The notes under the pieces: generated by a model
Databases searched by the model: none
What the model was told of the DNA's origin: nothing
Seen by the model: the letters and a program-made list of their open reading frames with translations, nothing else
Shown here: in pieces, positions 10,001-50,451 of the stretch
Numbering within the stretch: position 1 is the first letter of the stretch
How the letters are laid out: each line of letters opens with the position of its first letter
DNA from: Chiloscyllium plagiosum
Taxonomy: Eukaryota
NCBI RefSeq assembly: GCF_004010195.1
Contig: NC_057758.1
Location: 6,882,311 to 6,946,310, forward strand
DNA length: 64,000 nt
Direction of reading: 5' to 3'
Made by a program: the position numbers and the translations under genes

Positions 10001-10570
10001 CAGGATATTGGTTCAGCCACTGTTGGAATATTGTGTGCAATTCTGGTGTCCATCCCATCGGAAAGATGTTGAGAAACTTGAAAGGGTTTAGACAAGATTT
10101 ACAAGGATGTAGCCAGGATTTGAGGATTTGAGCTACAGGGAGAGGCTGAACAGGCTGGGGCTGTTTTGCCTGGAGTGTCGGAGGCTGAGCAGTGACCTTC
10201 TAGAGGTTTACAAAATTATGAGGGGCATGGATAGGATAAATAGGCAAAGTCTTTTCCCTGGGGTTGGGGAGTCCAGAACTGGAGGGCATAGGTTTAGGGT
10301 GAGAGGGAAAGATATAAAAGAGACCAAAGGGGCAACGTTTTCACGCAGAAGGTGGTACGTGTATGGAATGAGCTGCCAGAGGATGTGGTGGAGGCTGGTA
10401 CAATTGCAACATTTAAGAGCCATTTGGATGGCTATATGAATAGGAAGGTTTTGGAGGGATATGGGCCGGGTGCTGGCAGGTGGGCCGAGATTGGGTTGGG
10501 ATATCTGATCGGCATGGACGGGTTGGACCGAAGGGTCTGTTTCCAGGCTGTACAACTCTATTACTCTATT
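7059..10570 (+). mobile_element. CR1 LINE, 5'-truncated within ORF1, with 3' tail; decayed
   Basis: IVLGDSIVRG esterase, LNCIYFNAR endonuclease, SGVPQGSVL and SKFADDTK RT, YCVQFW; ends in CTCTATTACTCTATTAC tail. Confidence 0.93.
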
Positions 10571-10571
10571 A

Positions 10572-11720
10572 CCCCTGTGTTAGATCCAAGTTTGCAAGAA
10601 GGACGCATCACTCCCCAATGGCCACAGTTAAAGCAAGGGCCAGCCATTTGTACTTCGGGATTTCGTGGTCATCTTCCTCGTCCAAAAGGTGTAGTACAAG
10701 GGCCTGTCTGTCCCCACATCCAGGTTCCAATCAGGAAAGGGTTTCTCAGCAGTGGTCGCTGGTTGGGCATTTCAGGTAGATATCCTGTCCCAAACAACAA
10801 TGTCAGGATTGGCACTTGGCATTTGGGATCGCAAGGCTGCTGGATGGAATCAATTTTCCCTGTAACTTACATCGTGCTTCACTCTGGTTCTGGCCATTAC
10901 AATGGAAATCTACTGCTCACCTCATTTGTTATTAGGAAATCCGGGACTATCTCATATTGTTTGGTTCATGTTGGCGACACCAGAAGGAATACATTGCAAA
11001 AGTGTAGTGTTAAACAAAGGTGATGCATTCTCGGTTGTTTTTCAAATGTGGGCTGTATTCCAATTCCTTCAGACAAAAGGCTGCTTATTTCAGTCTCATA
11101 GCAAAAGCCATTCGTGATCAGGCTACTCCCATAATTTGGCTGTCTTTACCTCTGTATCAACCTTCGGACGTATTGAGAAAATTAGGCTGGTGTGTTCTTG
11201 CAGTCAGGGTCATGCTTCATTAACATTACTCTGATTCCCGGGATGGCCCGTGGTTTAGGATGGCTCAGGCCAATCATCCCCTTGATATCGGCTATGAAGA
11301 CTCGACGCTTCATTTTCAAAAGAAGGAAAGGTTTGTAATGAGGAATGCGTTGAGGGCAATCAGGAGATATTCGGGGCTTAGTGGGTATCTTGGTATAAAA
11401 TTCCCATGCCTCATCCCCATTAGTGTCATCCCCATTCTCCAGTAGGGTCTGTATGCCAGACGTAGGCTTGGGGTTCCAAGTAAACAGTAAGTTCTTTATT
11501 TTGCAGCGTTGTTGCTAGAGCTCTTTTTGAATATTCCTCTGCCTTAGTGACCTTACACTGTTTCTCTTGATTCCTTTGTTTTCCATCTACCCATCCAAAT
11601 GTTCAGCGATGAACATCTCTCAGCTTTTGAGATTTCCATTTGCTCTACATACCTCCATGCCTCAATCACATGCGGAATTCCTTCAACTGGCCATGAAGGT
11701 AACTTTCCAATCTTAAATTA
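10572..11720 (-). pseudogene. ERV gag-like remnant, copy A
   Basis: Minus strand: WPVEG matrix-like motif near 11690; degenerate zinc knuckle CFNCGHWGVMRPSC near 10590-10635; position fits gag upstream of RNase H. Confidence 0.5.
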
Positions 11721-14700
11721 GCAATAGATTCATGCATCCATGCTTCAGATTAACTATGAGACAATGGCACAGGTCAATAACAATGTGTACAGGAATAAAA
11801 CCAATCTGTCCTGCCAATAAAATCACATTTTGAGAGTCAGGGCTAATACAATTGGTTATTAAAATAATAAAAAAGTAATCATTACCTGCAATTCAGAGGT
11901 GGAAACTGAACAAGTAGGATATAAACTGGAAATTATTTATTCAAAATTCAATTTTAACATGTACACAGTTACCAACTCTGAAATCCATTATAGTTACTTG
12001 GTTCGAGTCCCTTATTTAATATGTCTAATTAGGTTTCAAAAGTCGGCCTGACAATCGTTGCTCATTTACTATGCTATAGGCCTACTCACATGGTAATAAA
12101 ATACTTCGAATGCATAAATAACGGCCGAATCCTAAGGCACAGATATGAACAATAGGATATTGATTTTGTTACATGATTTATCAGAACATAATGTTGAAAT
12201 TGTCAGTGAGGGAGAGTAATTGAGAAAGAGTAAAGCAATGACTAGTACTTCATAATCACCAATGCGATGCAGCAATCTTCAAATTAAATGGAAACAAACG
12301 AGTGCTAAACAAAATTAAACATGTTAGTATCGTTTTCTAAAAACACTACTGTTGGTTCGGGATATTTTGGATTTATCTTTATACTCACAGCGTTACAATA
12401 TTTAAGCAAATTAAATGAAATCCATGCAATTCCACCACTAAATGATCAAAAGTTAACGTCTGAAGTGATTTTCCTCAATGCTTGGTTTAGATTTTTATTA
12501 ACATTGAGCAGCGACCTGTCCTCATCCTGGAACGGAATTATTCTGCGCCAGAGGTCACGATTTTTGCGCCAATACTTTAATTCGTTTAGTCTATGCCTTC
12601 ATTTGTCGAACATGTATGTGTGGGAAGGGTGAAAATGGTCTTTTGCTTTCGCATGAAACAGTAGGGATTTTGAGACCAAGTTTATACTGATGTCAAATGG
12701 TACGGAATCTCAGTAGGATTCTATTTGTTTAAATCAAAATTGTAATGTCGTTTTCCACCACATTAAACTGATTTCGATTGACAATAGAATTGTTTTCATG
12801 TAAGCATGAACGTGATTAGTTAGAAATTGACAGTAGGACAGCCATGGCCTGCAAAAAACACGGTTGGTGGGGCGATAATATTTCATTTCATAATCACTGA
12901 TGGTTCTTTACACTTAAAAGATATCATCTTAAATTCCCGAAATCCAACTCAAATTCAAAACACTCCTGGATCTCAACTCCAGTCACTAAAACACAAACAT
13001 TCTGTAAATGTGCATTCAAACCAAATCACAAAGGATTAACCTTTCTGCAAGATGCAGGGAATCACAGCTGAGTCAGTCTCTCTTTCTCTATCTCTCTCTC
13101 CCGCTCACACGCACACATGAACATTTTCCAAATTCCCTCATATCTCAGTTTACAGATTTTGTTTATTCCTTGCTTGTGAGGGCCATGAGGCACTTTCCAA
13201 TGCAGTCCAACTTAGGGAGATTAGCCTCATAAATCTTGGCTTTGAAACATAGCTGCTTAACGACGTGGACAAAATCCAAATACCTCCCAGACGTTCCATT
13301 TGCAATTATACCAACATTTTCAAAGCAAGCTGTTCGTGCCGCTGCATTTGTCTGCAACCCAGGGGAAATGTAATGGAGTCCTTAATAGATACACAATGTG
13401 CCCCGTGCGCCAAATCGAGTGAAACCTGGACATCCTGAAGCAAGCAACTATAATTAATACAGATTTGCATGAGCCAATTGAAAATAATGTTGGGCAATTG
13501 AATGGATCGGGGTATCTTGAAGCACGCTGCATACCTCAGAGTGAGTCTGGGGCTTATCAAATATTTCATAACCGTGAGGAAAGCAAATTCGTTTTTCCTA
13601 ATTTTGTAAACGTTAAGATGCTTTCAACAGCACTTTCCATCCGGACAATATGGCCCTGTTGAGTACTCACATGAGTATCTTGCTTTTGTGGAGCGAGAAT
13701 TGCATCAGCATTTCCAACAGCATTTTTTTGTACCTGGCCAAATTTCGATTTTTGTTTTGGACGAGACCAAAGCAGCAATCGCCCTCTTTTTTTCATTTCT
13801 CCAACAATATTGGCCAGTGACCTGGCAGAACCAGGGTATCTCCTACCGTGTTCCTGTGATATTCGGATTTACCTTGGTCCTTCAGGGTCTTTCTGGACAG
13901 ACCAAGAGGACCTGGACTGCCCTTCACAACAGGACAAAGCGAATATGGGGCAGTCCTTCCACATGACGTTTGAAATTAACAAACCCCATCGGATCCTCAG
14001 TAGTCGTGGCATGAGCGTGTAACCTACAAAAGAGAACGAATAAATCCACGCAAAGACAACCTGGCATGGGGGCAGCTGTCAATTCTCCTGTAATTTACCT
14101 GCAATTATAGCTCCATCCTTCACAGACGAAGACAAGTGCAAATTCAGCTTGGCTGCCAATTTCAACAGCTTTCCCTTGCGCAACTTTTGTGAAACCCATT
14201 CTTCCACTCTCAGAAAAATCTTAGCGACTGAAAGAGCCAATAGTTCAGAAAGCACTGTTCAAATCAACCGAATTCAACACCGGGAACAACAGACACCAAC
14301 ACCTACCACTCGCCATCTTTATGTCCAACAATCACAATGTTGAATTATGAATTACACAATCTATCTCGACAACAGCCTTCAAATTGCCAGAACCCTGGAA
14401 TATATTTTCAGAAGTTTGTGTCAAAACTAACGATTCCTCATTTTAAAGGCAGACGTGAGTTGTGTTTCCACCAGAATGCAACGGGTCAGACGACTCATTT
14501 AAGCACTACAGTTGGAACACGAACAAAATAAAAGAGGAATTTAGAATAACTGCACTGTTGCAAAAATTAAATGACCCGCTATAGTAACAAGTAATAAATA
14601 ACTGTTCAAAAACAGAAGCATTCCATAAACGGAATTCTTGTAAAAAGGATAAATTCAAACAAATTCTTGCAGGCATGAGGAACAATATGTAGAGAAATAC

Positions 14701-14929
14701 TTCAGAAAAAATCAAAGGAATTCTTCAAAGCAGCTTGCGACTCCCATGTACTCAATATCTTTTGACTGCTCCAGCTAAACCAAACTGCAAAAAGCCTGAA
14801 CCATGAGACCTGGCCACAGCTATCGAATTGTTAAACTATACTCTCCGTCACCATTGCCATTAATAACTGTCAAAAATAAAAACAGGTCCAAAGCTAGCTT
14901 TATAAAGTGGCAGACTCATCACACGAGCG

Positions 14930-16085
14930 AGGGAAGAAATCATGGAGGCCCTGGCAGAAATTTTCACATCATCTCCAGCTACGGGTATGTTTACAAAATA
15001 CTGGAGGGTGACAAATATTGTGTCTTTATTGAAGGGAAGTGCAAAGGAGAAGCCTGGGAACTATAGATCGATGAGTCTGACAAGAGTGTTAGGTATGTTA
15101 TTGGAGTGGATGTGGAGAGATAGAATTTACACGTATTTGGATGGGCAACGTATAGGGACGGTAGGCATTGTTTCGTACGTCGGAAATCGTGACTAACAAT
15201 CTGCATTGAGTTGTTTAAGGACGGAAGCCAGAAGGTAGATGAAGACAGAATGCTGCACGTTATTTACATGGACATTAGAAAACGTTTGTCAAGATGGAAT
15301 TCAATTAGAAAACTGCCAGATATTGCATTTAGGAAAAGGAAGACGGGTTGGATTTATAGATAATAGCAGGGACGTGGGAGTTTTGCCCAACAGAAAGATC
15401 TGGGTTTCTTGCACTTACTTCGATGAAAGTTGCATCACAGGTAGTCTGGGTGGTTAATAACGGTATTATCACGTTTGCCTTCCGTGCTAATAACATTGAA
15501 TGTAGGAGTGGGAATTCATTTTGAGGTTGTACACGACCCGGTGATGCCACGTTTGGCGTATTGTGCGTGTGGTCTCTCTGTTATTTGAATGGTATTATTT
15601 AATTGGAAATGATTCAGAAAATATTCACCAGGCTGTTACTGGGACTGAAGGGTTTTAAGTTACAACAGGCTGGATAGTCTGATATTTTTATCAGTGGCGG
15701 GTAGACGATTGAGTGGTGACAATTTAGAAGCTTATAACATTGTGAGACGTACAGATATGTTGAATAGCAAAGTCATTCTCTCTCGGGAGGGGAGTTGAAA
15801 ACTAGGGGGCATGTACTTAAGGTGACAGGAAAAATGCTGAACAGGGACATGAGGGGCAATGTTTTGATATAGAGGGTGGTAGCATATGATCTGGCATGCC
15901 GGAAGTAATGGAATAGATAGGCAGATTTAAACCATTCAAAAGACGTTTGGACAGCTTCATGAATAGGAAAGGTTCAAAGGCATATGGGCCGAGCGGATCC
16001 AAATCATTTTAGATTTGTTTATGAATATTGCCAGGGTAAATGTGTTGGATCGAAGTATTTGTTTTTTTCTTCTGCATGACTCTGA
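14930..16085 (+). mobile_element. Heavily decayed CR1 ORF2/3' fragments
   Basis: EALAEIF...WRVTNIVSLLK...PGNYRSMSLT, followed by CR1 3' region similarity. Confidence 0.8.
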
Positions 16086-16806: not shown

Positions 16807-17559
16807 TCTCACAGACACCATGCCTTCATTAAAGTACTTTACCCTGGTCTTCACAGGGCACATTCACGGGATGAGTAGGTGGACGGGGTGATGAAGATGG
16901 GGAATGCTGGGGGAGGTGGTGTCAATGGGCAATGGAAATGGAGCTGACGAATAGGGAGACTTGCAGTGTCTTTTAAATCTTTGTGTTTTTCTTTCATAAA
17001 CTACAGATGCTGTTTGTATATCGGTGATTGGTGTACAGCTACGTCAGACGAACAGGAGCCCAATGACTGGTTCCTGGTGAAGGCAATCGGTGTGAACAAG
17101 TGACCAGTTTTCAACAGGGACGACTCTCCATTTGACGACAATGTCGCGATTCATTGTGAAGACACCAACGATAGTCTGGGCTGTGACCAGGGCGTGGAGA
17201 AGCTTCATGAGACCCTTGAGAGGAATGAGGGTGGGTGTTACTGAAGATCGGTTGGGCAGTATGTGTCAGCCCGTAAGAGTGGAGAAGGTCGGGCTGTGCT
17301 AGTGCTGGGATCTTGGTTGGAAACACCAACAGGTGCCCAAAAGGAGCAGAATGTGGCTGCAAACCTAGACGCGGTGAGGGGACTTGGAACAGAGACGATA
17401 ACGGGTTGGAGAACTGGAAAGGAAGTGGTGGGACCATGGGAGGCAGGAGTGGGAAGGAAGGCACAGTGCTGCATTGGGAACTTAACCATCCACTGTAAAT
17501 GGGGACAGTGAGTATGTTGGTGCCATCGAGGATCTTGCGATGTTTGATCCAGGGCCAGC

Positions 17560-17725
17560 AGACATGGATAAGGCAGTTGATCCCTTCATCAGGAATGTCA
17601 GGCAGTGATTATGCCCAAAATGTCCATTGTCCTGCTACTCGGATGCTGGCTGACGTACTGTGCTTTCTCAGTGGCAAACGTTCCGACTCGGATCTCCAGC
17701 ATCTGTAGTCCTCATTTTCTCCTTC
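17560..17725. mobile_element. Decayed Penelope-like terminal fragment
   Basis: CCCTTCATCAGGAAT...CTCCAGCATCTGTAGTCCTCATTTTCTCC, resembling the element at 40671-40876. Confidence 0.5.
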
Positions 17726-17749
17726 ATCAGATGCTCCAATAGGTGTGCG

Positions 17750-18075
17750 ATGGATTTTGAGTTTGGTAAAGCAACCTGAGGCAGGACTTATACAATTAAT
17801 AGTAGGACCCTGGAGATGAGGGTGAAGAAGATGTTAGGAATGGTTGGCTTCATTGGTCAGAATTTAGAATCTAGGAGTTGGGATGTCATGTTCCGGCTGG
17901 ACAGGACATTAGTGAGACCACGATTGGAATACTGCATTCAATTCTGGTCTCCCAGGCAGAGGAGAGATTTTGTTAAATGCAGAAAACATTGAAGGATGTT
18001 GAGTTGGTATTTGTGCTACAGGGAGAGGAACAATATGCTGCAGCAATCTTTCCAGGAATGTTGGATACTGAGAGG
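17750..18075 (+). mobile_element. Decayed CR1 3' fragment
   Basis: Matches the CR1 3' region seen elsewhere in the window (GGAATACTGCATTCAATTCTGGTC). Confidence 0.7.
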
Positions 18076-18079
18076 TGAT

Positions 18080-18272
18080 CCAGTCAGTATGTTGGTGCAT
18101 CCATTTAGTTCGTCAGTCGCCTGTGCATCCATTCGGTCAGTCAGCTAGTCAGTCAGTGAGTTCAATCAGTAACTCAGTCAGTGCCTTCATTCTGTCAGTC
18201 AGTGAGAACAATCATTCAGTTAGTCAGTGCGTTCTTTCAGTCAGTCTATCAGTGCGCCCTTTCAGTCAGTCA
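18080..18272. repeat. Degenerate (CAGT)n microsatellite
   Basis: Repeated cagt/tcag units. Confidence 0.85.
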
Positions 18273-18899
18273 AAGTGTGGGAGAAAGTGAAAGCGACGTG
18301 ACTTGTTTAAACTAAAAGAGTCAGGTGTAGAGACTTTGAACAATTAACAAACTTTACCATGACCAGAGGGAGTTAAATCTTCCTTCGTAAAGTCCGACAC
18401 AATTCCAAAGAAATACAAAATGGTACAGGCTGTATAGATAATCAAAGCTCGCTGTCCATAAACTGTGCACCCTCGGGGCAGTCATGAAGTTCCCATACAT
18501 TTTCCAGACCAATATTTCTTAATATCTACGAGACTGAATGTTATATTTTATTCCAGGTTTAGCAAGGCTAGAATTCCCAATAAGGGACAGAGAGAAACAA
18601 TTCATCATTTTCTGGGACAGAGCTAACGACACTGAGGAGCCGAGACATCTTGAAGCTGCAAGTGAGTATTATCAGAGCGGGATTGTTCTCACACTTCATT
18701 AAAATGCTCGAAATCTTACTGCAAAAATTGCTTTGTGACCGAATGTCTTCTAACTGTTTTGTGTCAATTTTGGCCAATTCTTCTTCAATCCTTACTTTTT
18801 TAAAACAAAGGAACGGATTGGGAGCCAGGGGGATTGTCAGGGATATGGTAGTTGGAGATCGGACAGATCATCCTCGGGATTGGTAAGAAAAGGGGCAGA

Positions 18900-20190
18900 A
18901 GGGTCCAGGTAATGAGAATCGCCATTTGGGGTTTCATCAGGAAGAGAAAACCTAGGCATCTGCGGAATCACCGAGGACCAGAGCCAAAACAAGGAATTGA
19001 ATCTTACACTGGCCAGTTGGACACAGACAATAATCATAGTTAGGATAGCAATGGCCACGATGAGGATTATGAGGCCTTGTACAAGGTCACTTAATCATAC
19101 CCGAACCATCGGTCCATCCAGCTCCACAAATCCCACTAGGAACTGTTCTCGTGGAGCTCTGTGACTACTTTACAAATGTGGTTAGCAACATTGGTGATGT
19201 TCTCAGTGTCAAAGGGAATGGAGGTGCAACAGGTAGAGCCTATCAGGGCACCTGTGCTCCGTTTCTCAGCTCACAAATAATCCAGGGCCAGCCTGTTCTG
19301 CAGGGCCATAGTGGGATTGGCGACCATTTCTGCATTTATCTCAGCAAGGGCTGTGGCAGTGTTGTTTGAAGTAAAGCCAGGCGCCTTACTTCAATACGTA
19401 TCGAGCAGTTGCAAAAGGGAAGAGAAAAATCCGAAAAACTGTTTTGAAATGGCAATGGATCTGTTGCAGCGAGACCAAGGCTGTTCAAATGAGGACGAGT
19501 GGGATTCATAGAGGAAAGGAATCACGTACCCCAAATAGCAGTTGGCAGTCTAGAAAAACGTGAAGGCTGGTCTCAGCTGGACAGTCCCACTCGGAGTGGC
19601 CGTGAACACTTTTCTTGGGAATCTGAGTGATCGGAAGCATGTCTTCCAGGCCAAGAGAAATGATGTGCAGAGAGGAGGAGCATGTGCTGGATCTCACCTC
19701 CCAATCCCTCTGCAGGCTGCTTTTGAAGCAGATCGTAGCCTGCGCAGTACACCTTGGATTGTGGTTTTGGTAAGGAACAGGGCAGCGGGTATGCGCGCAA
19801 GATTACATGCAACTTCAAGACATACCTGACTGTCTGCAGACAATACCTTGCTGACTCCCAGATATACCTTATTGTTTTGTTGTGGTGAGGGGAAGAGGGA
19901 ATCTGAACCATCACACCGGCAGGCTGGGTCTGATATAACCACCATTCAACCATCTCAGAGATATGAAGTGTGACGGTCAATGGGGCATGTCTCCGAAAGG
20001 GTGGACAGGAATATGAATACACATCCAGCATCGGGAGTAGTTGACATTCTGTGCAGAAATAGAAGTATTAAACTGTAATTCTGTTAACTGGAGGTTTTCA
20101 GGTTATCCATTGTGTCCCAACCAAACTTAGTCAGTGAAAGAACGATAAGAAAGAGTGTAGTGAAAGGAAGGATGATCAGGCTGAGACATT
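18900..20190 (-). pseudogene. env: Endogenous retrovirus env (gamma-type SU-TM), disrupted
   Basis: Minus strand, across frameshifts: hydrophobic signal-like segment (~20190-20130); CWMC (20030-20019); CYLGYVIP; degenerate cleavage site RCNR; LQNRLALDYL (19303-19274) then TGA; (G)ALIGSTCC; TM segment GLIILIVAIAILTMIIVCV (~19080-19020). Confidence 0.88.
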
Positions 20191-20249
20191 TGCAGACGGA
20201 TGCTGAACAAATGTCTCTGACGGGGTCTCCTGGTTTTCCTCCACTACTT

Positions 20250-20350
20250 TTGCATTGTTTTGCGCGCATCTATTTGGGCCTCCCCTTGACCTTGACCGCT
20301 GTGCAGGTGACCAGTAGAACAAGGAATGGATCTTCCATTTGCCCATTCCT
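20250..20350 (-). pseudogene. ERV integrase C-terminal domain remnant
   Basis: MEDPFLVLLVTCTAVKVKGRPK*MRAKQCK resembles the GPF/Y-VLLxTxTAVKV...WIHAxxxK motif of class I retroviral IN; lies immediately upstream of env. Confidence 0.85.
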
Positions 20351-20629
20351 AATTTTGAGGCTTAGTGTACCTGTGATTGTAAACTTTGATGAGCTTTGGG
20401 TAACTAATGGAAATATTTCCGACGTGTCCACCACAATATTAGCAGCAGTATCAGTTAGTGGGATGGTCTTCATGCCTCTGCAATAAAATCTACAATTATT
20501 AGACAATATTCAGAAAAATGTATGCGAGATGATTCTATAAAAACAAACTGTAGACAAGTAAAAGATAAGGCCCACCAGGCAAGAAAGTCGCTAACAAACT
20601 CAAGTCATCCTTTTTCACAGCATGTGTCT

Positions 20630-21215
20630 TGTTTATTTACAAATTACAGCAGCTCTTTTCTTAGCTGCTTTCTGAAAATCGGGGTACCACTAAGTTTATA
20701 ATAGAACAATAACCATTCCCTCCTTGCCCAAGTATATACCATTATGCACATAATCAACTAAAATAGGCAGCAGCAAAGAAGGATCACAACTTGTTCAATG
20801 CGGGTCACCCAAATGTTGGTTTGAGTATCAAGGGATTACCCTATTTGAGGCAACAGTTTATGCTCTTCAGCCAGCGGCATCCCAGTTATTCTGTACCTTG
20901 CCCAAGTCTGTCATACCTGTCCGCATATTGTCTCTTCTCGGGGTTTGCTGGCGACCCAATGGGGCCAAAAGTTTGGGATGTAAGCCTGCCTGCTTGGCAG
21001 CAACATCTGTCTGCTCGTTCCTTCGACGACTGTACCAATTGCCTGAGCGACAGCCGAACATCTTGATAACTGCCAGATTGATTGGACAAAGCATTATTGC
21101 GAATAGGCTGCCCATGGAGGTTAAAAATCTTCAATGTTCCCACAAGGCTCTGCAATGTTGGATCACATCAAAAGGACAACGAGAGTCAGTGAAGACTTAC
21201 ATGTTTTCCTTTTGA
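20630..21215 (-). pseudogene. ERV pol remnant: RNase H and integrase N-terminal (HHCC-type) region, copy B
   Basis: Across small frameshifts: VFTDS-RCPFDVIQHCRALWEH*RFLTS...PINLAVIK...RNEQTDVAAKQA (RNase H), then LLPILVDYVHNGIYLGKEGM...WYPDFQKAAK (IN N-terminus). Confidence 0.82.
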
Positions 21216-24200
21216 TTGGATGCAAGCACATTCTCAGGTGAACGTAGCATAAATAGCCAGGTTTCTGGTATTGAGACTGGCTCTAATGCAACGCGGGGTA
21301 AGTCGGCTTCCCAGAAATCAATTGTGTTAGAGGATTCTGTAGTCAGCGGTACAGACAGGCGTTTCTATGGCCAGCAGAGCAAAAGCAAAATGGTATGTTG
21401 TTTCCCTGGTGCCAGGATCAGCGATATCTCAGAGATGGTGCAGAATGTTCTCACGGGGGAGAGGGGCCAGAACGAGATCACTGTCCACATTGGAACCAAC
21501 GGCATTGGAAGGGAAAATGGTGAGACTCTGAAGGGAGATTACAGAGAGTTAGGTAGAAATTTAGAAAGGTGATCCTCAAGGATAGGAATATCTGGATTAC
21601 TCCCAGTTCTACGAGCTAGTGAGGGCAGGAGGAGGAGGACGGAGCAGATGAATACATGGCTGAGGAGCTGCTGTATGGGAGAAGGATTCACATCTTTGGA
21701 TCATTGGAATCTCTATTGGGTAGAAGTGACATGTACAAGAAGGAAGGATGCACCTAAAGTCGAAGGGGACTAATATACTGGCAGGGAAATTTGCTACAAC
21801 TGCTTGGGAGGATTTAAACTGGTAAGGTGGGGTGGTGGGTGGGACCCAGGGAGATAGTGAGGAAAGAGATCGACCCGAGACCGGTACAACTGAGAACAGA
21901 CGTGAGTCAAACGGTCAAGGCAGGCAGGGACAAGGAAGGACTAATAAATTAAACTGCATTTATTTCAATGCAAAGGGCCTAACAGAGAAGGCAAATGAAC
22001 GCAGGGCATGGTTAGCAACATGGGACTGGGATATCTTAGCAATTACAGAAACATGGCTCATGGATGGGCAGGGCTGGCATAAGAATGCTCCAGGATACAA
22101 ATGCTACAGGAAGGATAGAAAGGGAGGCAAAAGAGGAGGGGGAGTGGCATTTTTGATAAGGGATAGCATTACAGCTGTGCTAAGGGAGGATATTCCTGGA
22201 AATACATCGACGGAAGTTATTATTTGGAACTGAGAAATAAAAAATGGATGATCACCTTTTTGGGATTGTTCTTTAGCCCCCCCAATAGTCAGAGGCAAAT
22301 TGAGAAACAAACTTCTAAGGAGATCTCAGCTATCTGTAAGAATAATATGGTGGTTATGGTAGGGGATTCTAACTTTCCAAACATCGACTGGGGCTGCCAT
22401 AGTGTTTGGAGGCAGTTGTTTGCAGCTGAAGGGACGGCTGGAAAATGGGAAGCCTTCAGAAATGAGATAGCAAGAATCCAGAGAAAGTATATTCCTGTCA
22501 GGGTGAAAGGGAAGGCTACTAGCTATTGGGAATGCTGGATGACTTTAAGAAATTGAGGGTTTGGTTCAGAAAAAGAAGGAAGCATATGTCAGGTACAGAC
22601 AGGAAAGATCGAGTGAATTCTGAGAAGAGTATGAAGAAAGTAGGAGTATATTTAAGAGAGAAATCAGGAGGACAAAACGGGGACATGAGATAGCTTTGGC
22701 AAATAGAATTAAGGAGAATCCAAAGAGGTTTTACAAATATATTAAGGACAACAGGGTAACTAGGGAGAGAATAGGGCCCCTCAAAGTTCAGCAAGGCGGC
22801 TTTTGTGTGGAGCCACGTAAAATGGGGGAGATTTTGCATCAGTATTTACTGTGGAAAGGGATATGGAAGATATAGACGGTAGGGAAATAGATGGTGATAT
22901 CTTGCAAAATGTCCAGATGACAGAGAAGGAAGTGCTGGATGTCTTGAAGCAGTTAAAGGTGTATAGATCCCCAGGAACTGATCAGGTGTACCCGAGGACT
23001 CTGTGGGAAGCTAGAGAAGTGATTGCTGGGCCTCTTGATGAGATATTTGTATCATCGATAGTCACAGATGAAGTGCCGGAAGACTAGAGGTGTCAAACGT
23101 GGTGCCACTGTTTAAGAAGGGTGGTAAGGACAACCCAGGGAACTATAGACCAGTGAGCCAGACCTCGGTGGTCGGCAAGTTGTTGGAGGGAATCCTGACG
23201 GACAGGATGTACATGTATTCGGAAAGGCAAGGACTGATTCGGGATAGTCATGGGAAATGTGCATGGGAAATCATGTCTAACAAACTATTGAGTTTTTTGA
23301 TGAAGTAACAAAGAAGATTGATGAGGGCAGAGCAGTAAGATGTGATCTATATGGACTTCAGTGAGGCGTTTGACAAGGTTCCCCATGGGAGACTGATGAG
23401 CAAGGTTAGATTTCATGGAATACAGGTAATAGTAGCCATTTGGATACAGAACTGGCTCAAAGGTAGAAGGCAGAGGGTGATGGTGGAGGGTTGTTTTTCA
23501 GACTGGAGGCCTGTGACCAGTGGAGTGCCACAAGGATCGGTGCTGGGCCCTCTATTTTTTGTCATTTACATAAATGATTTGGATGCGAGCAAAAGAGGTA
23601 CAGTTAGTAAGTTTGCAGATGACACCAAAATTGGAGGTGCAGTAGACAGCGAAGAGGATTACCTCAGATTACAACAGGATCTGGACCAGATGGGCCAATG
23701 GGCTGAGAAATGGCAGATGGAGTTTAATTCAGATAAATGCAAGGTGATGCATTTTTGGGAAAGCAAATCTTAGCAGGACTTATACACTTGATGGTGAGGT
23801 CCTAGGGAGTGTTGCTGAACAAAGGGACCTTGGAGTGCAGGTTCATAGCTCCATGAAAGTGGAGTCGCAGGTAGAAAGGATAGTGAAGAAGGCGTTTGGT
23901 ATGCTTTCCTTTATTGGTCAGAGTGTTGAGTCGAGGAGTTGGGAGGTCATGTTGCGGCTGTACAGGTCATTTGTTAGACCACTGTTGGAATATTGTGTGC
24001 AATTCTGCTGTCCTTCCTTTCGGAAAGATACTGTGAAACTTGAAAGGATTCAGAAAAGATTTACAAGGATTTAGCCTGGGTTGGAGGATTTGAGCTACAG
24101 GGAGAGGCTGAACAGGCTGGGGCTGTTTTCCCTGGAGTGTCGGAGGCTGAGGGGTGACCTTATAGAGGTTTACAAAATTATGAGGGGCATGGATAGGATA

Positions 24201-24535
24201 AATAGGCAAAGTCAATTCCCTGGGGTTGCGGAATCCAGAACTGGAGGGCATAGGTTTAGGGTGAGAGAGAAAGATATAAAAGAGATCTAAGGGGAAACTT
24301 TTTCACGCAGAGGGTTGTACATATATGGAATGAGTCACCAAAGGGTGTGGTGGAGGCTGGTACAATTGGAACATTTAAGAGCCATTTGGATCGGTATATG
24401 AATAGGAAGGTTTTGGAGGGATATGGGCCGGTTGCTGGCAGGTGGGACTACATTGGGTTGGGATATCTGGTCGGCATGGACGGGTTGGACCAAAGGGTCT
24501 GTTTCCAGGCTGTACAGCGCTATGACTCTATGACC
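21216..24535 (+). mobile_element. CR1 LINE, paralogous copy of 7059-10570
   Basis: Same motifs ([32 protein letters not shown]); tail CTATGACTCTATGAC; same 3' flank. Confidence 0.93.
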
Positions 24536-25745
24536 CCTGTGTTAGATCCAAGTTAACATAAAGGACATTACTCCCCAATGGCCACATTTCCACATTTAAA
24601 GAAAGGGCCAGCCATTTGTACTTCGGGATTTCGTGGTCATGTTCCTCGTTCAAAAGATGTAGTACAAGGGCCTGTCTTCCCCACATCCAGGTTCCCATCA
24701 GGAAAGGGTTGATCAGCATTGGTCGCTGGGTGGGCATTTCAGGTAGGTATCCTGTCCCAAACAACAATGTCAGGATTGACATGTGGCATTTGGGATCGCA
24801 AGGGTGCTGGATAGAATCAATTTTCGCTGTAACTTGCATCGTGCTTCACTCTTGTTCTGGCCATTACAATAGAAATCTACCGCTCAACTCATTTGTGATT
24901 AGGAAATCCTGGATTATCTCATATTATTTGGTTCATGTTGGCGACACCAGAAGGAATACATTGCAAAAGCATAAAGTTAAACAAAGGTGATGCATTCTCG
25001 GTTGTTTTTCAAATCTGGGCTTTATTCCACTTCCATCAGACAGATGGTTGCTTATTTCAGTCTCATAGCAAAAGCCATTCGTGCTCAGGCCACTCCCAGA
25101 ATTTTGCTGTCTTTAGATTTGTATCAATCTTCGGACGGTTGAGAAAATTAGGAGAGTGAGTTCTTGCAGTCAGGGTCATGCTTCATTAACGTAACTCTGA
25201 TTCACGGGATGGCCCGGGCTTTAGGATGGCTCAGGCCAATCATCCTCTTGATATCTGCTTTGAAGACTTGACGCTTAATTTTCAAAAGAAGGAAAGGTTT
25301 GTCATGAGGAATGTGTTGAGGGAAATCAGGAGATGTTCGGGGCTTAGAGAGTATGCTTTAGATTAGATTAGATTACTTACAGTGTGGAAACAGGCCCTTC
25401 GGCCCAACAAGTCCACACCGACCCGCCGATGCGCAACNNNNNNNNNNNNNNNNNNNNNNNNNNNNNNNNNNNNNNNNNNNNNNNNNNNNNNNNNNNNNNN
25501 NNNNNNNNNNNNNNNNNNNNNNNNNNNNNNNNNNNNNNNNNNNNNNNNNNNNNNNNNNNNNNNNNNNNNNNNNNNNNNNNNNNNNNNNNNNNNNNNNNNN
25601 NNNTTGATTCATTTGTTTTCCATCTAGCCATCCACAGTCAGCTATGAACATCTCTCAGCTTTTGAGATTTCCATTTACTTAACATACCTCCATGCCTCAA
25701 TCATATGGGGAATTTCTTCAACTGGCCATTAAGGTATCTTTCCAA
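24536..25745 (-). pseudogene. ERV gag-like remnant, copy B (interrupted by a SINE/LINE tail and a gap)
   Basis: Paralogous to 10572-11720. Confidence 0.45.
25358..25437 (-). mobile_element. 3' tail of a young CR1-mobilised SINE or LINE (HE1/HER1-like), present only in copy B
   Basis: TTAGATTAGATTAGATT tail plus GTGTGGAAACAGGCCCTTCGGCCCA; absent at the equivalent site in copy A (~11380). Confidence 0.75.
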
Positions 25746-28700
25746 TCTTTAATTAGCAATAAATTTATGCATCCATGCTTCAAATTAACCACGAGACAAT
25801 GGCACAGCTCACTAACAATGTGTACAGGAATAAAACCAATCTGTCCTGCTAAAAAACTCGCATTTTGAGAGTCAGGGCTAATACAATTGGTTATTAAAAA
25901 TAATAAAAAAAAATCATTATCTGCAATTCAGAGTTGGAAACTGAACAAGTAGAATATAAACTGGAAATTATTTATTCAAAATTCAATTTTAGCATGTACA
26001 CAGTTAACAACTCTGAAATCCATTATCATTACTTGGTTCGAGTCCCTTATTTAATATGCCAAATTAGATTCCATAAGTCGGCCTGACAATCATTGCTCAT
26101 TCACAATGCTATAGGCCGTGAAATGACTGCAGCAGCATTAAAAGATCTTGCCTACTCACATGGTAATATAATACTTCGAATGCATAAATAACGGCCAAAT
26201 CCTAAGGCACAGATATGAACAATAGGATATTGATTTTGTTACATGATTTATCAGAACATAATGTTGAAATTGTCAGTGAGGGAGAGTAATTGAGAAAGAG
26301 TAAAACAATGACCAGTACTTCATAATCACCAATGCGATGCAGAAATCTTCAAATTAAATGGAAACAAACGAGTCCTAAACAACATTAAACATGTTAGTAT
26401 CGTTTTCTAAAATCACTACTGTTGGTTCGGGATATTTTGGATCTATCTTTATAGTCACAGCGTTACAATATTTAAGCAAATTAAATGAAATTCATGCAAT
26501 TCCTCCACTAAATGATCAAAAGTTAAAGTCTGAAGTGATTTTCCACAATGCTTGGTTTAGATTTTTATTAACATTCAACAGCGACCTGTCCTCATCCTGG
26601 AACGGAATTATTCTGCGCCAGAGGTCACGATTTTTTGCGCCAATACTTTAATTCCTTTAGTCTATTCCTTCATTTGTCGAACATGTAAATGTGGGAGGGG
26701 TGAAAATGGTCTTTGGCAGTCGCATGAAAGAATAGGGATTTTGAGACTAAGTTTATGCTGATGTCAAATGGTACAAAATCTCAGGACGATTCTTTTTGTT
26801 TAAATCAAAATGTTAATGTCGGTTTACAACACGTTAAAATGATTTCGATTGAAAATAGAATTGCTTTCACGTAAGCATGAATGGGATTAGTTAGAAATTG
26901 ACAGTAAGGCAGCCATGGCCTGTAAAAAACAAGGTGGGTGGGGAGATAATATTTCATTTCATCATCACTGATGGTTCTATACACTTAAAAGATATCATCT
27001 TAAATTCCCGAAATGCAATTCAAATTTAAAACACTCCTGGATCTCAACTCCAGGCAACAAAACACAAACATTCATTAACCAACAAGCAAATGTGCATTCG
27101 AACCAAATCACAAACGGTTATCCTTTCTGCAAGATGCAGCTGAGTCAGTCTCTCTTTCTCTCTCCCTCTCCCTCCCGCTCACACGCACACATGAACATTT
27201 TCCAACTTTCCTCATATCTCAGTTTACAGATTTTGTTTATTCCTTGCTTGTAATGGCCATGAGGCACTCAGTTTCCAATGCAATCAAATTTAGGGAGATT
27301 AGCCTCATAAATCTTGGCTGTGAAACATAGTTGCTTAACCACGTGGGCAAAATCTAAATACCTCCCAGGCGTTCCATTTGCAATTTTAACAACATTTTCA
27401 AAGCAAGATGTTCGTGCCGCTGCATTAGTGTGCAACCCAGGGAAAATGCAATGGAGTCCTTAATTGATACACAATGTGTCCCGTGTGCCAAATCCCGTGA
27501 AACCTGGACATTCTGAAGCAAGCAACTATACTTACTACAGATTTGCACAATTGAAAATAATGTTGGGCAATTGAATGGATCGGGGTTTCTTGAAGCACGC
27601 TGCATACCTCAGAGTGAGTCTGGGGATTATCAAATATTTCATAATCGTGGGGAAAGCAAATTTGTTTTTACGAATTTTGTAAACGTTAAGATGCTTTCAA
27701 CAGCACAATCCGGACAATAGGGCCCTGTTGAGTACTCACATGAGTGTCTTGCGGCTGTGGAGCGAGAATTGCATCAGCATTCCCAACAGCATTTTTTTGT
27801 ACCTGGCCAAATTTCGATTTTTGTTTTGGACGAGACCACAGCAGCAATCGCCCTCTTTTTTTCATTTCTCCAACAATATTGGCCAGTGACCTGGCAGAAC
27901 CAGGGTATCTCCTCCCTGTGATATTCGGATTTACCTTGGTCCTTCAGGGTCTTTCTGGACAGACCCATAGGACCTGGACTCCCTTCAAACCAGGACAAAG
28001 CGAATATGGGGCAGTCATTCCACATGACGTTTGAAATTAACAAACCCCATGGATCCTCAGTAGCCGTGGTATGAGCCTGTAACCTGCAAAAGATAACGAA
28101 CAAAAGCACACAAAGACAAACTGGCGTGGGCGCTGCTCTCAATTCTCCTGTAATCTTCTGCAATTATAGCTCCATCTTGCAGTTGCATGAAAGAATAGCG
28201 ATCTTGAGACCAAGTTTATGCTGATGTCAAATGGTACAAAATCTCAGGAGGATTCTTTCTTTGAAATGTAATTCAAATTCAAAGATGAAGGCAAGTGCAA
28301 ATTCAGCTTGGCTGCCAATTCCAACAGCATTCCCTTGCGCAACTTTTCTGAAACCCATTCTTCCACACTCAGAAAACTCTTAGCGACTGAACGAGCCAAT
28401 AGTTCAGAAAGCACTGTTTAAACCAACCGTATTCAACTCCCGGAACAACAGACAGCAACACCTAGCCATCTTTATGTTCAACAATCACAAATTTGAATTT
28501 TGAATTACACAATCTATCTCGACAACATCCTTCAAATTGCCAGAACCCTGGAATATATTTTAAGAAGTTTGTGTCATTTTAAAGGCAGACTTGAGTTGTG
28601 TTTCCACCAGAATGCAACGGATCAGACGACTCGGCTTTAAACAAAACAGAATTCATTTAAGCACTACAGTTGGAACACGAACAAAATAGAAAGAGGAATT

Positions 28701-29169
28701 TAGAATAACTGCACTGTTGCAAAATTTAAACGACCCGCTACAGTAACAAGCAATAATTAACTGTTCAAAAACAGAAGCATTCCATAAACGGAATTCTTGT
28801 AAAAAGGGAAAATCCAAACAAATTCTTGCAGGCAGGAGGAACAATATGCAGAAAAATACTTCAGAAGAAAGTCAGAGGAATTCTGCAAAGCAGCTTGCGA
28901 CTCCCATGTACTCATTATCTTTTTGACTGCAACAGCTAAACCAAACTGCAAAAAGCCATAACCATGAGACCCTGCCACAGCTATCCAATTGTTAAGCTAT
29001 ACTTTCCGTCACCATTGCCTTTAATAACTGTTCAAAATAAAAACAGGTCCGAAACTAGCTTTATAAAGTGGCAGACTCATCACATGAGCGAGGGAAGAAA
29101 TCATGGACGCCCTGGCAGAAATGTTCGCATCATCTCCAGCTACGAGTATGTTTACAAATGACTGGAGAA

Positions 29170-30325
29170 TGTGTGTGTCAGAGATCGAGAGAGAGAATGC
29201 GAGTGAATTTCCGCGTGTGTGTCAGAGATCGAGAGGGAAAATGTTCGAGTGCGTGAGAAAGAGGGAGAGAGATTGTGAATGTGTGTGAGAGAGGGAGAGA
29301 GAATGTGAGAGTGTATGTGTGTGTGAGAGAGAATAGGAGAGTATGTGTGTGAGAGAGAGAATATGCGAGTGTAATTGTCAGAGATAGAGAGGGGCAATGT
29401 GAGAGAATGTGCAGGTGTGTGTCAGAGATCGAGAGAGAGAATGNNNNNNNNNNNNNNNNNNNNNNNNNNNNNNNNNNNNNNNNNNNNNNNNNNNNNNNNN
29501 NNNNNNNNNNNNNNNNNNNNNNNNNNNNNNNNNNNNNNNNNNNNNNNNNNNNNNNNNNNNNNNNNNNNNNNNNNNNNNNNNNNNNNNNNNNNNNNNNNNN
29601 NNNNNNNNNNNNNNNNNNNNNNNNNNNNNNNNNNNNNNNNNNNNNNNNNNNNNNNNNNNNNNNNNNNNNNNNNNNNNNNNNNNNNNNNNNNNNNNNNNNN
29701 NNNNNNNNNNNNNNNNNNNNNNNNNNNNNNNNNNNNNNNNNNNNNNNNNNNNNNNNNNNNNNNNNNNNNNNNNNNNNNNNNNNNNNNNNNNNNNNNNNNN
29801 NNNNNNNNNNNNNNNNNNNNNNNNNNNNNNNNNNNNNNNNNNNNNNNNNNNNNNNNNNNNNNNNNNNNNNNNNNNNNNNNNNNNNNNNNNNNNNNNNNNN
29901 NNNNNNNNNNNNNNNNNNNNNNNNNNNNNNNNNNNNNNNNNNNNNNNNNNNNNNNNNNNNNNNNNNNNNNNNNNNNNNNNNNNNNNNNNNNNNNNNNNNN
30001 NNNNNNNNNNNNNNNNNNNNNNNNNNNNNNNNNNNNNNNNNNNNNNNNNNNNNNNNNNNNNNNGAGAGTGAGAATGTGTGTCTGTGTGAGGTAGAGAGAT
30101 AGAGAGATACTTACTGTGTGAGTAAGTGAACGAGTGTGTGTGAGAGAGAGCGAGTGAGTGAGAGACAGAGAATGTGAGAGTGTGTGTGTGAGTGAGTGTG
30201 TGTGTGAGAGAGTGAGAGTGAGTGTTTGTGTCTGAGAGAGAGAAAATTTATGTGTGTGAGAGATAGAGAGAGGGGGTGTGTGTGTGAGAGAGAGAATGTG
30301 AGAGTGTGTGCATGTTTGTGAGAGA
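29170..30325. repeat. (GA)n/(GT)n compound microsatellite spanning a gap (29444-30063)
   Basis: Low-complexity GA/GT runs. Confidence 0.95.
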
Positions 30326-32060
30326 GTCATAGAGTCATAAAGATGTACAGCATGGAAACAGACCCTTCGGTTCAACCTGACCATGCCAACGAGATATCCG
30401 AACTAAATCTCAACCCATCTGCCAGTATCCGGCCCGTATCCCTCCAAACTCTTCCTATTCTTTTTACCACCCAAATGCCTCTTAAATGTTGAAATTGCAC
30501 CAGCCTCCACCACTTCTTCTGGCAGCTCATTCCATAAACGTACCACCCTCCGCGGGAACAAAATGCCCCTTAGGTCTGTATTATATCGTTCCCCTCTCAC
30601 CCTAAACCTATGCTCTCTAGGTCTGGACTCCCCGATCCCAGGGAAAATACTTTATTTATCCTATCCATGACCCTCATAACTTTGTAAATCTCGGTAAGAT
30701 CACCCCTCAGCCTCCAACGCTCCAGGAAAAACAGCCCCAGCCTGTTCAGCCTCTCCCTATAGCTCAAATCCTCCAACCCTGGCAATATAATTGTAAAACC
30801 TTTCTGAACCCTTTCAAGTTTTAACACATCTTTCCAAAGGAAGGAGAGCAGAATTGCACAGAATATTCCAACAGTGGCCTAATCAATGCCCAGTACAGCG
30901 GCAACATGACCTATCATCTTCTGTACTCAGTAATCTGACCAATAAAGGAAAGAAAACCAAACGCCTTTTTAACTATCCTATCTACCTGCGACTCCACTTT
31001 CAAGGAGCTATGAACCTGGACTCCAAGGTCTCTTTGTTCAGCAACACTCCCTCGGACATTACCATCAAATATATAAGTCCTGTTAAGATGTGCTTTCATA
31101 AAATGCAGCCCCTCACATTTATCTGAATTAAACTCGAACTGCCACTCCTCAGCCCATTGACCTTTCTGGTACAGATCCTGTTGTAATCTGAGGTATCCCT
31201 CTTCGCTGTCCACTACACCACAAGTTTTGGTGTCTTCTGCAAACTTACTAACTGCACCTCTTATGCTCGCATCCAAATCATTGATGTAAATGACAAAAAG
31301 TAAAGGACCCAGAACCGATCCAGTGGCACTCCACTGTCACAGACCTCCAGTCTGAAAATCAACCCTCCACCACCACCCTGTGTCTTCTACCTTTGAGCCA
31401 GTTCTGTATCCAAATGGCTAGTTCTGTCTTTATTCCAAGAGATCGAACCTTGCTAATCAGTCTCCCAATTGAACCTTGTAGAAAGCCTTACTGAAATCCA
31501 TATAGATCACATCTACTGCTCTGCCCTCATCAATCCTCTTTGTTATTTCTTCAAAAACCTCAATCAAGTTTGTGACACATGATTTCCCATGAACAACGCC
31601 ACGATGACTATTCCTGATAACTCATTGCCTTTCCAAATAATAAAACACCGACAAGACTGGGATTTGAACACACGCGTGCAAACCACAATGGATTAGCAGT
31701 CCTTCGCTTGAACCACTCAACCACCTCGTCCAAAGTTGCAATGCACATAATTATGGTCGCTTCTCCCACAATTTTCCCACACTGAAACTTCACTTACCTG
31801 ACCTGCTTAGTTCCTAAACTCAGGTCCCTTCCCTGGTTGGGCAGTTTACCTATTTTGTCAGGAATCCCTACTGACGGTTCTTACAAATTCTGCCCATCCA
31901 AGTTACTAGCGTGCCAGGGAAGTTAATAGCACCCACCACAACAACCTTGCTATTACATCTATCCAAGATCTGTCTGCATTTTCTCTCTTCTCTCGCCTGC
32001 TGGTCGTTGGGAGGCCTGTAGTATACACGCAGCATTGTTATTTCGCATTTCCTATTCCTG
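30326..32060 (-). mobile_element. CR1 LINE 3' portion with internal deletions
   Basis: SKFAEDTK, LGVQVHSSLKV; tail GAGTCATAGAGTCATA on + strand. Confidence 0.9.
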
Positions 32061-32069
32061 AGTTTTAAG

Positions 32070-32284
32070 CAATGAATCTTGCACTGCCCTTGCTTCTTGA
32101 GTGTTTATATGACACCTGGAATTGTTTCTTCACCAGGAAATAAATCCTTCTCTTCCACATATCTTGTAATGCACTGCAGGGACATGCCGTTTCTCGATCT
32201 AAGGTCGAGTACTGATTTTACCAATTTCACCCCGTGTGGGGCGGTTGGACCCCGATGCAGGGAAGTGTAGGCCTCAGGCTCCAT
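32070..32284 (-). pseudogene. Linker histone H1/H5 globular-domain-like fragment (left arm)
   Basis: VKLVKSVLDLRSRNGMSLQCITRYVEEK resembles H15 helices 1-2; truncated by CR1. Confidence 0.4.
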
Positions 32285-34089
32285 TTTCAGCCGAGCTCTG
32301 AATTTAACAATTTCACCTCATGTGGGACTGTTAATGATCCGGACAAGGAGGCCCCGTCTCATGCTCGTGTTTGTTGATCTTTCATGGAATCTGTGGGATT
32401 GAGAGCCCCACATGTATGGACGTCCATAGGAGGAAAGTTCCAGTTTCTATCTTGACCGAGTACTGCCGAGAATACAAATCTCTTTCCGAACCACAGAGAG
32501 ATAAAACCCAGTAAATGATGGAAATGAACACGCAGTCTTCTGTTTTGAGATAGGCCAGGTGACTCAGAGCAGAATGCCTCATCTCCACGTTTTCCTGACT
32601 TTTCCTTCCAGGACTGACCAGGACCCACAATGTAGGGAAACGTAAGCCTGCGCATCATCTTGGAGAGTTGACTTTACAGAGTTCTGTGAAACTAAAGACC
32701 TTCACACTCACAGCTAGATACATGTGCACAAAGAGCAGGAGAGTCCCAGGCTCCATTCTCGGGCCCTTTCCAAAACCGATCTCACACTAGATGAATTGGG
32801 GATGAATTGAGACCCACAGCGCGGGAGGTTTAGGCCTAAGATCCAGATCATGGAACTAGTACTTACATTTGATCCAGAGTTAGCTGAACTCCACAGATCA
32901 GAGATGAAGAACGCAGGTTGAATCTCTGGGCCAAAATAATGCACATCCCACTCGCACCATGACCCTTATGCAGGACTCGGATGCATCTCAGACCTCGTGC
33001 TGTGTTAGTCAATGAACCAATATCTCGACAGAGCAGTGAAATATCGGATCAGGATGCATCGGGGGCCCAGAGCTGGGGAAGCCAATTAGTGGATTTAATG
33101 CAGGGGCATATAGGACTAGGCTGCATATTGGTCCGAGTGCAAGTGAGCCAATCAGAGTGAAGGTCAGAACTTGCTGCTCAGTGCAAGGAAATATAGGCTG
33201 TGCCTCGGTTTTGGATTTGCTTCACCAATTGGTTGTGCAATTGACTGAGGCCTCAATGTGGCACAACTGATATCGTGGGCCATTACTGCGCCACGGCTGA
33301 GTGCAGCCTCGCCAGCCTCCGACTCTCAGTTTCCATGATTATCATCCAAGGCTCCTGAATGCCCGGCTTCAGGAACTCACCCACCCCTGGCAACAACATG
33401 GAGGATTGGGAGCCTGCCAGCCAGTTCTGCAGCAGGGTGCCTCCTGGACTATGTCGTGGGTGAGCAGCAGTGGCTGAATGAGATCCAGCACTACATCCAC
33501 CAGCATCTGCAGCTCACCATCACAGTCCTCCGGGGCTTGATTGGCACCAAGGCTGCGTCTTGGCGTCGGTGGTCTCCAGCAAAGAGTGGAGCAATGTGCA
33601 GCCACAAAGGGTCCTCTGGCCCATCCTCGTTATGATGCATCTGGAGGCCATGCCAGTGCCTACATCACCACCCAGTGGATTGGTCTGATGTGTTGAAGTT
33701 TGAAATATGGGGCCGAGCTCTTAGAAGGAAGAATTGGTAGATGTTAAACATGGTCCAAAAGCATGAGGCCTAGTTTTTAATGGGAACTAAATTTCAGAAT
33801 ATCATCAAGAATTCTCTGATAAAACTTCTCTTCCCATCCCAGCACTACAAAGAAGAGAAAATCACATCTGTTCCTTACCTGTAACCTCCCAACAAAAACC
33901 CCATCACCAAACTAAAACGAAAAGAGGGAAAGAGAAAGACCTGGTCCTCGGTATGGAAGGAGGAGGAATTGGAAAATGGAAGGTGGAGTTTGGGAAAATG
34001 GGGTCTTTGAATTTAGGCGCGGGGAGTTGTGGTAGGGACGGGTTTGGGGTGCACCAGGCATGGAATTACAGTTTGGGCAGGGTTTTAGG

Positions 34090-35950: not shown

Positions 35951-36242
35951 TAGACTAGAATGAGAAGATGTCGAAATGATGGCGTATAGAAGCAGATTCT
36001 GTGTTATATTCGTGGAAAATGGGTCCTCACGGAAACAGCTGCATATATCAATGGTGTTGTTTGAAGATACATCCTCATAGCATCAGCATGGGATCTTAGA
36101 CTAGAATGAGAAGATGTCGAAATGATGGCGTATAGAAGCAGATTCTGTGTTATATTCGTGGAAAATGGGTCCTCACGGAAACAGCTGCATATATCAATGG
36201 TGTTGTTTGAAGATACATCCTCATAGCATCAGCATGGGATCT
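35951..36242. repeat. Perfect 146-bp tandem duplication
   Basis: 35951-36096 equals 36097-36242; single copy in the right arm. Confidence 0.95.
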
Positions 36243-42645: not shown

Positions 42646-42649
42646 ATCA

Positions 42650-46968: not shown

Positions 46969-46974
46969 TTGATA

Positions 46975-50450: not shown

Positions 50451-50451
50451 C

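Follow-up and report, generated by a model that had tools for sequence, protein, structure and literature searches.

A broken endogenous retrovirus in a shark genome, probably of class I and epsilon-like, with an antisense LINE in the place of protease and reverse transcriptase

Introduction

The epsilon reference used here (L005), which we take to be walleye dermal sarcoma virus, an epsilonretrovirus of the exogenous kind, measures 12,708 nt and carries a cyclin ORF after env (Pfam Cyclin_N). Epsilon-like endogenous retroviruses (ERVs) of cartilaginous fish have also been reported (PMC4422223, PMC6001957, PMC4977317 and PMC10699275); the fish epsilon-like ERVs constitute clade Mu (PMC6001957), and lineages II and III of the elephant shark CmiERVs are epsilon-like (PMC4422223). 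Class I terms follow PMC4724089. Retrovirus-derived extra sequence ahead of gag is known from ERV-W, where it is a piece of another ERV's pol (PMC6995185). The available part of PMC8672886 contains nothing on a double gag, and our literature search, a weak guide because subscription literature lay outside its scope, returned neither a natural ERV with two capsid modules nor a description in elasmobranchs of the envelope family discussed below.

Here we analyze a 64-kb stretch of the genome of the shark Chiloscyllium plagiosum (contig NC_057758.1; hereafter the window, meaning the stretch at its full length). Its minus strand holds a real retrovirus, and the locus as a whole is very probably a dead, fragmented class I ERV, likely of the fish epsilon-like kind, with an antisense LINE occupying the place of protease and reverse transcriptase (RT).

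Results

On the minus strand, broken RNase H, integrase and gamma-type env pieces follow one another in proviral order: RNase H, the H2C2 zinc finger, the integrase core and C-terminus, then env, as in a class I ERV. All retroviral genes are interrupted by stops and frameshifts. An earlier note, made from the sequence alone, had proposed such a provirus on the strength of short motifs, every one of which sits where it was reported, on the minus strand; protein searches bear out the retroviral homology of its RNase H, integrase N-terminus, integrase C-terminus and env. The frameshift-aware protein comparison that it proposed gives scores of 225-400 for env and 193-252 for pol (P0032, P0034), both against shuffle maxima of at most 50.

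The C-terminal half of RNase H (20981-21226, minus strand) matches the pol of L002 and L005 (E 3e-6 and 2e-5) and includes TDS (21190-21182), ALW (21148), RFLTS (21130), LAVIK (21076) and NEQTDVAAKQA (21019-20987), all on the minus strand; its top PDB matches are XMRV/MLV RNase H (E 0.03). The integrase N-terminal zinc-finger region (20627-20860, minus strand), with YVHN (20752) and LGKEGM (20731-20714), is recovered by tblastn with two fish epsilon-like ERVs, P0032 and P0034 (E ~1e-14), which themselves carry the Pfam domain Integrase_H2C2. A degenerate start of the catalytic core follows on the same strand (20476-20565), where the alignment pairs it with residues 155-183 in P0034 and 236-264 in P0032. 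The C-terminal domain survives as an MLVIN_C-like remnant (20243-20368, minus strand) containing PFLVLLVTCTAVKV (20329-20288), with tblastn matches to the pol of L002, L005, L006 and L010 (E 4e-3 to 6e-5). Against P0032 and P0034, the pol piece shows 3-4 stops and 5-6 frameshifts.

The earlier statement that protease, RT and integrase core are missing holds for protease and RT; for the core it goes too far, given the alignment of its start at 20565-20476. The greater part of the core was not found at the locus, nor were protease, RT and the N-terminal half of RNase H, and the protease-RT of L002, compared with five flanking regions, scored 44-65 against shuffle maxima of 42-64. Pfam, run directly on the window's retroviral frames (12 frames and 17 short pieces), assigned no family to the 12 frames and, among the 17 pieces, returned only MLVIN_C at E 0.17; it is blind to these frames because they are too decayed.

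The env pseudogene spans 18837-20155 on the minus strand, delimited by homology, its lower end being the stop of the membrane-span frame. It comprises an SU with CWMC (20030), a basic cleavage-like site (19471-19460), a TM with an immunosuppressive motif (LQNRLALDYL, 19303-19274) and a degenerate CX6CC (IGSTCC, 19243-19226), a hydrophobic membrane span (19076-19014) and a tail. These are the features of a gamma-type envelope (SU CxxC, immunosuppressive motif, CX6CC, membrane span), save that CX6CC lacks its first cysteine. Env is the best-kept gene of the locus, with 36-42% identity over ~300 residues for most of seven envelope references, and is broken against them by 2-8 stops and 1-6 frameshifts, depending on the reference. 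It occurs once within the window.

A single-frame query (19061-21220, with X at stops) searched against 1.84 billion representative proteins retrieved 217 proteins at E<=0.001, the best a shark/ray gamma-type envelope (7.7e-27). Among 20 of these 217 scanned with Pfam, 15 contained TLV_coat, three contained RNase H and/or integrase domains, one was an astacin/CUB protein and one a bacterial repeat protein; the last (P0086, E 2e-6) was taken as a chance match. Of the twelve best env matches, six are named proteins, each of them from a shark, and further matches come from stingray, sawfish, white shark, sturgeon, alligator and bony fish. The top PDB match of the TM piece is syncytin-1 (E 0.002); a word-index search with the env TM frame gave no match. 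In a tree of envelopes, the window env finds no sister and falls in an open fork of 15 rows. Automatic annotation has already picked up close envelopes in eight or more shark/ray species, under the names 'ERV group PABLB member 1 Env-like', 'ERV group 3 member 1 Env-like' and 'syncytin-like'. Of the earlier suggestion of an old class I provirus from a probably uncatalogued cartilaginous-fish lineage, the first part is supported, as an epsilon-like remnant; the lineage is not an isolated one.

Placement of the Pol piece against epsilon and gamma ERVs, also proposed earlier, sets it with fish epsilon-like rows and outside the gamma clade. In a tree of RNase H-integrase pieces (22 rows, of which L004, L007 and L008 are of odd length), the window row joins P0032 and P0034 (86/82), within a group that includes L002, P0135 and P0165 (94/91, unstarred), and the 12 MLV-like (gamma) rows form a 100/99 clade that does not contain it. 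A second tree with even cuts (15 rows) gives the same grouping and rejects a union of the window with the gamma rows (AU p=0.025). The Pol piece is therefore likely epsilon-like, although the placement draws on ~190 degenerate residues, its branch is long (3.2-3.5 changes per column) and RT is absent. Six-frame translation of 16807-18800 yielded no Pfam match, and no accessory (cyclin-like) ORF was found after env, although decay could hide one.

The earlier note mentioned neither the LINE, nor the duplications, nor an upstream capsid fragment. The LINE (21229-24534, left edge approximate, plus strand) is 5'-truncated, ~3.3 kb long and antisense to the provirus, and fills the gap between putative gag and RNase H. 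It has the endonuclease and RT of a LINE ORF2 (Pfam Exo_endo_phos E 1e-6, RVT_1 E 3e-26), a short tandem-repeat tail and, as a high-copy element would, very high depth in sequencing runs; presumably it belongs to the CR1 clade. Its flanks (21208-21226 and 24535-24552) have 14 of 19 letters in common; among 400 random anchored pairs, 5 score as high, but among unanchored random pairs 15% do.

On the gag side, homology does not back the earlier assignment of gag to 25745-24536, with the exception of a degenerate zinc knuckle where the region ends on its 3' side. This putative region (24540-25745, minus strand) is broken up at 25358-25437 by a LINE tail and at 25438-25603 by an assembly gap, and comparison with Pfam, PDB, the atlas, the ORFs of 21 retroviral loci, viral contigs and two gag profiles gave it no significant relative. 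Atlas searches with two natural open stretches recovered either no usable match or unnamed clusters only, with recognition below threshold; the best weak scores (L018, 53 against a shuffle maximum of 39; L005, 45 against 38) both fall in a charged stretch. The knuckle-like motif is clearest in a duplicate copy (10635-10594). Its pattern, picked after the sighting, has no other match in the window, where 0.11 are expected per shuffled window, and the nucleocapsid of P0167 aligns at the knuckle with a score reached by none of 40 shuffles.

Beyond this weak knuckle, the only gag piece to pass a homology test lies 1.7 kb upstream of putative gag: a fragment resembling the capsid N-terminal domain of fish ERVs (27444-27627, minus strand), with copies at 13557-13363 (minus) and 61649-61843 (plus). 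It matches the capsid start of the fish-type gags of L002 and P0167, and all three copies score 72-102 against P0167 in frameshift-aware comparison (shuffle maxima 32-50); profile E values are 8e-7 for copy 1, 1e-4 for copy 3 and 0.016 at 27627-27444. A capsid C-terminal domain was found neither after the fragment nor before the knuckle, where 5-39 of 40 shuffles reach the score. Knuckle and capsid fragment are 2.9 kb apart here versus ~0.7 kb in L002, and an AT-rich spacer of ~1.3 kb separates the fragment from putative gag.

The earlier failure to see an LTR pair or a primer-binding site (PBS) was confirmed by an LTR pairing test and a PBS pattern search. The env 3' flank scored 30-36 against six upstream regions (shuffle maxima 36-43), so that no partner LTR appears in any copy; four loose PBS patterns matched, none after a repeat; Rfam returned a single weak tRNA match in the window; and no proviral target-site duplication was found, so a complete provirus is not present. 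A purine-rich run followed by TG just after env (18787-18801, minus strand) is possibly a polypurine tract and the start of a 3' LTR that has no partner. In copies 2 and 3, but not in copy 1, a 315-nt segment (26716-27030) recurs upstream of the capsid fragment at 96% likeness; as an LTR pair it was ruled out, the upstream copy being absent from copy 1.

Copies were sought within the window only. Copy 1 (6442-15006, minus strand), comprising pol piece, LINE, gag-like region and capsid fragment, duplicates copy 2 (20467-29167) at 88-93% in blastn; it ends inside the integrase core and lacks the integrase C-terminus, env and 21086-21295. Copy 3 (60128-63999, plus strand), found by similarity search, is an inverted partial duplicate with the capsid fragment and spacer, then the LINE; it lacks 23718-25757, hence the whole of putative gag. 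K2P distances from copy 2 are 0.071-0.094 for copy 1 and 0.03-0.05 for copy 3. Because the LINE differs between copies 1 and 2 about as much as the viral pieces and the spacer do (about 7-9%), it predates the duplication. Over 95 in-frame codons, these two copies differ by 13 non-synonymous and one synonymous change and have two stops in common; the zinc-finger frame adds two more common stops. A second block (92 codons, 14 non-synonymous and three synonymous differences, five common stops) exceeds the supported frame and is not fully counted. Given the common stops and the mostly non-synonymous differences, the virus had already died by the time of copying. A separate inverted duplication (~96%), with two GPCR genes, takes up most of 30317-59939.

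The locus is present in two other sequenced organisms. Part of 18800-21200 occurs in 17 of the 24 sequencing runs listed, eight from organism A (43-47% of words) and nine from organism B (5-7%), with no RNA run listed among them. Contigs resemble the window by up to 99% in organism A and ~91% in organism B, viral pieces and flanks alike, and the RNase H/LINE junction is bridged by one X9 contig from organism B, which shows 44 differences in 513. Four runs were mapped on 16807-25437 at 88% likeness. In the three DNA-like runs, env bins have roughly the depth of the flanks (in X4, 49-117 versus 55-92) and LINE bins reach 1e5-1e6, depths of summed contigs that do not amount to copy numbers. Because env depth is close to that of the flanks and four orders below that of the LINE, there is no sign at this likeness of a young dispersed family or of numerous solo LTRs. 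In the RNA run X18, depth is 0 in 6/6 bins of 18823-20550 and at most 0.23 in other clean viral bins; as a single polyA single-cell run of organism A, with 2 in 100 read, it is a weak sign of silence.

Discussion

The structure of the gag side admits more than one reading. It is nearly an even question whether two adjacent remnants are present, that is, a pol-env element with its own gag at 24540-25745, of a type not represented among the references, next to a capsid piece of a separate, older ERV at 27627-27444. The two gag-like regions are mutually unlike (best tblastx E 0.03) and have the AT-rich spacer between them, and the zinc-knuckle-like motif, where the P0167 nucleocapsid aligns, stands exactly at the end of putative gag. 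However, the two pieces share a strand and follow the expected order with no LTR between them, and L002, the nearest full-length Pol relative at hand, bears exactly the upstream capsid type. This question touches the gag side only and is compatible with our main explanation.

The same capsid type in L002, combined there with a related Pol, also suits a different arrangement, which we consider possible at a clearly lower level: one provirus whose true gag begins at ~28.0-27.2 kb, with ~2 kb of unrelated DNA between capsid and nucleocapsid, so that most of putative gag would not be gag at all. The homology-backed gag pieces are indeed the upstream fragment and the terminal knuckle only. But a capsid C-terminal domain is nowhere found, and the putative gag region has, by eye, what may be a gag-like spacing of motifs.

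It is improbable that the provirus replicated in a defective, helper-dependent form, having already dropped protease-RT and part of integrase while keeping gag and env, or having carried tandem capsid modules. P0167, kin of the upstream capsid piece, does have two capsid-like repeats in tandem, and the anchored match of the LINE flanks resembles a decayed target-site duplication, in which case gag would have abutted RNase H before the LINE arrived. If the flanks are so read, we lean towards the loss of protease-RT having preceded the LINE. But unanchored flank matches are common, deletions after integration give the same picture, and no dispersed family is seen, viral bins being close to flank depth at 88% likeness. 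The most ambitious version, a shark epsilon-like lineage with two different capsid modules in tandem ahead of pol that lived helper-dependently with a full envelope and without protease and RT, seems less probable still. That env was domesticated by the host in the manner of a syncytin is hardly credible: it is the best-preserved gene and the locus is kept in both other organisms, but stops and frameshifts against 7/7 references contradict an open frame, the first cysteine of CX6CC is missing, and the lack of X18 reads on env speaks, weakly, against expression.

We therefore return to a dead class I provirus as the preferred reading, and its history may be sketched as follows. An epsilon-like retrovirus, exogenous and bearing a gamma-type envelope (disulfide-linked SU-TM, immunosuppressive motif), would have entered the germ line by integration. 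The provirus would then have shed protease-RT, the N-terminal half of RNase H, the greater part of the integrase core and its recognizable LTRs, with neutral decay of the remainder, and the LINE would have landed where gag meets pol, probably once protease-RT had gone. Segmental duplication, which in this region also involved GPCR genes, would have yielded two further copies of the dead block inside the window, each copy thereafter gaining its own deletions and insertions. At a K2P of 0.073 and the rate of 2.2e-10 per site and year assumed in PMC4422223, and flagged there as uncertain, the duplication would be ~165 million years old; a threefold faster rate would give ~55 million years. The provirus is older than the duplication at either rate.

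The locus likely has no present function and is passenger DNA, an ordinary genomic fossil that joins the cartilaginous-fish ERVs of class I, likely the epsilon-like ones. It points to no new mechanism, and would gain weight if full-length relatives proved to have tandem capsids or a helper-dependent, env-carrying life style. Its value is that of one more dated fossil in the thin shark retrovirus record: the order of provirus, LINE and duplication supplies relative dates for a duplicating GPCR region, and the envelope belongs to a family spread over many sharks and rays. RT-based surveys would miss such a locus, since it has no RT.

For the same reason, direct comparison with the published RT trees of clade Mu and the CmiERV lineages does not apply. 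The closest Pol relatives of the window are the fish epsilon-like ERVs P0032, P0034, L002, P0135 and P0165 (cichlid). P0032 and P0034 have 31-36% identity to its RNase H-integrase piece; fish epsilon-like ERVs and the window both have an MLVIN_C-type integrase end, and the upstream capsid piece matches the gag of L002 and P0167. Exogenous epsilon- and gammaretroviruses resemble the window in their class I Pol motifs and gamma-type TM, and are more distant in Pol: identity to the window piece is at most 22% for L005, which has a cyclin where the window has no accessory ORF, and 15-27% for the gamma rows. In ERV-W the extra piece in the long pre-gag regions is pol-derived, whereas at the shark locus the upstream piece is capsid-like and may or may not belong to the same provirus.

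The nearest known envelopes are those of sharks and rays, whose Pfam family is TLV_coat. Proteins of Heterodontus (XP_067885108), Scyliorhinus torazame (XP_072343862), Chiloscyllium punctatum (XP_072421847) and Pristiophorus (UniRef), and also of Pristis and Carcharodon, are annotated as PABLB member 1 Env-like or syncytin-A-like, and the four best named shark envelopes are 41-45% identical to the window env over the SU end and TM ectodomain. They have in common with it the SU CxxC, the basic site, the immunosuppressive motif, the CC pair and the membrane span; unlike them, the window env is broken by stops and frameshifts.

Repeated and duplicated sequence in the window

A 315-nt segment is represented, in whole or in part, at 60779-61093, 28179-28267 and 26716-27030. 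It was copied a second time, 1.46 kb upstream, in the common lineage of copies 2 and 3 (the studied locus and the inverted, partial copy, respectively); most of the upstream duplicate was subsequently deleted in copy 2. In the 3' flank of env, a GTCA-type microsatellite (18136-18270) lies approximately 560 nt beyond the end of env, and may mark the end of this flank of the element.

A much larger inverted duplication, with arms of approximately 13.5 kb each (30317-43806 and 46089-59939) and approximately 96% identity, has an assembly gap close to its centre. The duplication could be genuine, or could in part represent two haplotypes. Each arm harbors an open reading frame for a rhodopsin-family GPCR, at 51062-51868 on the plus strand (7tm_1, E = 1e-18) and at 37857-38525 on the minus strand (7tm_1, E = 5e-13), with GPR139 among the best PDB matches for the two; the open stretch is shorter in the latter copy (223 versus 269 aa). 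Both arms also carry a tRNA-Ser(GCT)-like sequence adjoining a LINE fragment (31649-31730, minus strand; 58537-58618, plus strand), which has a weak Rfam score and is possibly a pseudogene. Two shorter repeats, a 667-nt direct repeat at 98% identity (56381-57047 and 57205-57871, with an assembly gap between) and a perfect 146-nt tandem pair (35951-36242), are likely assembly artefacts.

Relatives of gag, pol and env in databases

The gag-like Logan protein P0167 contains two tandem capsid-like repeats ahead of its zinc knuckle. The fish-type Pol of two reference retroviral loci, L002 (1430-5548) and L018 (3324-7487), includes approximately 200 additional residues between protease and RT. Two further database proteins, P0102 and P0047, combine an env TM-like piece with either Ig V-set or astacin/CUB domains; these joins may be annotation fusions or captures.
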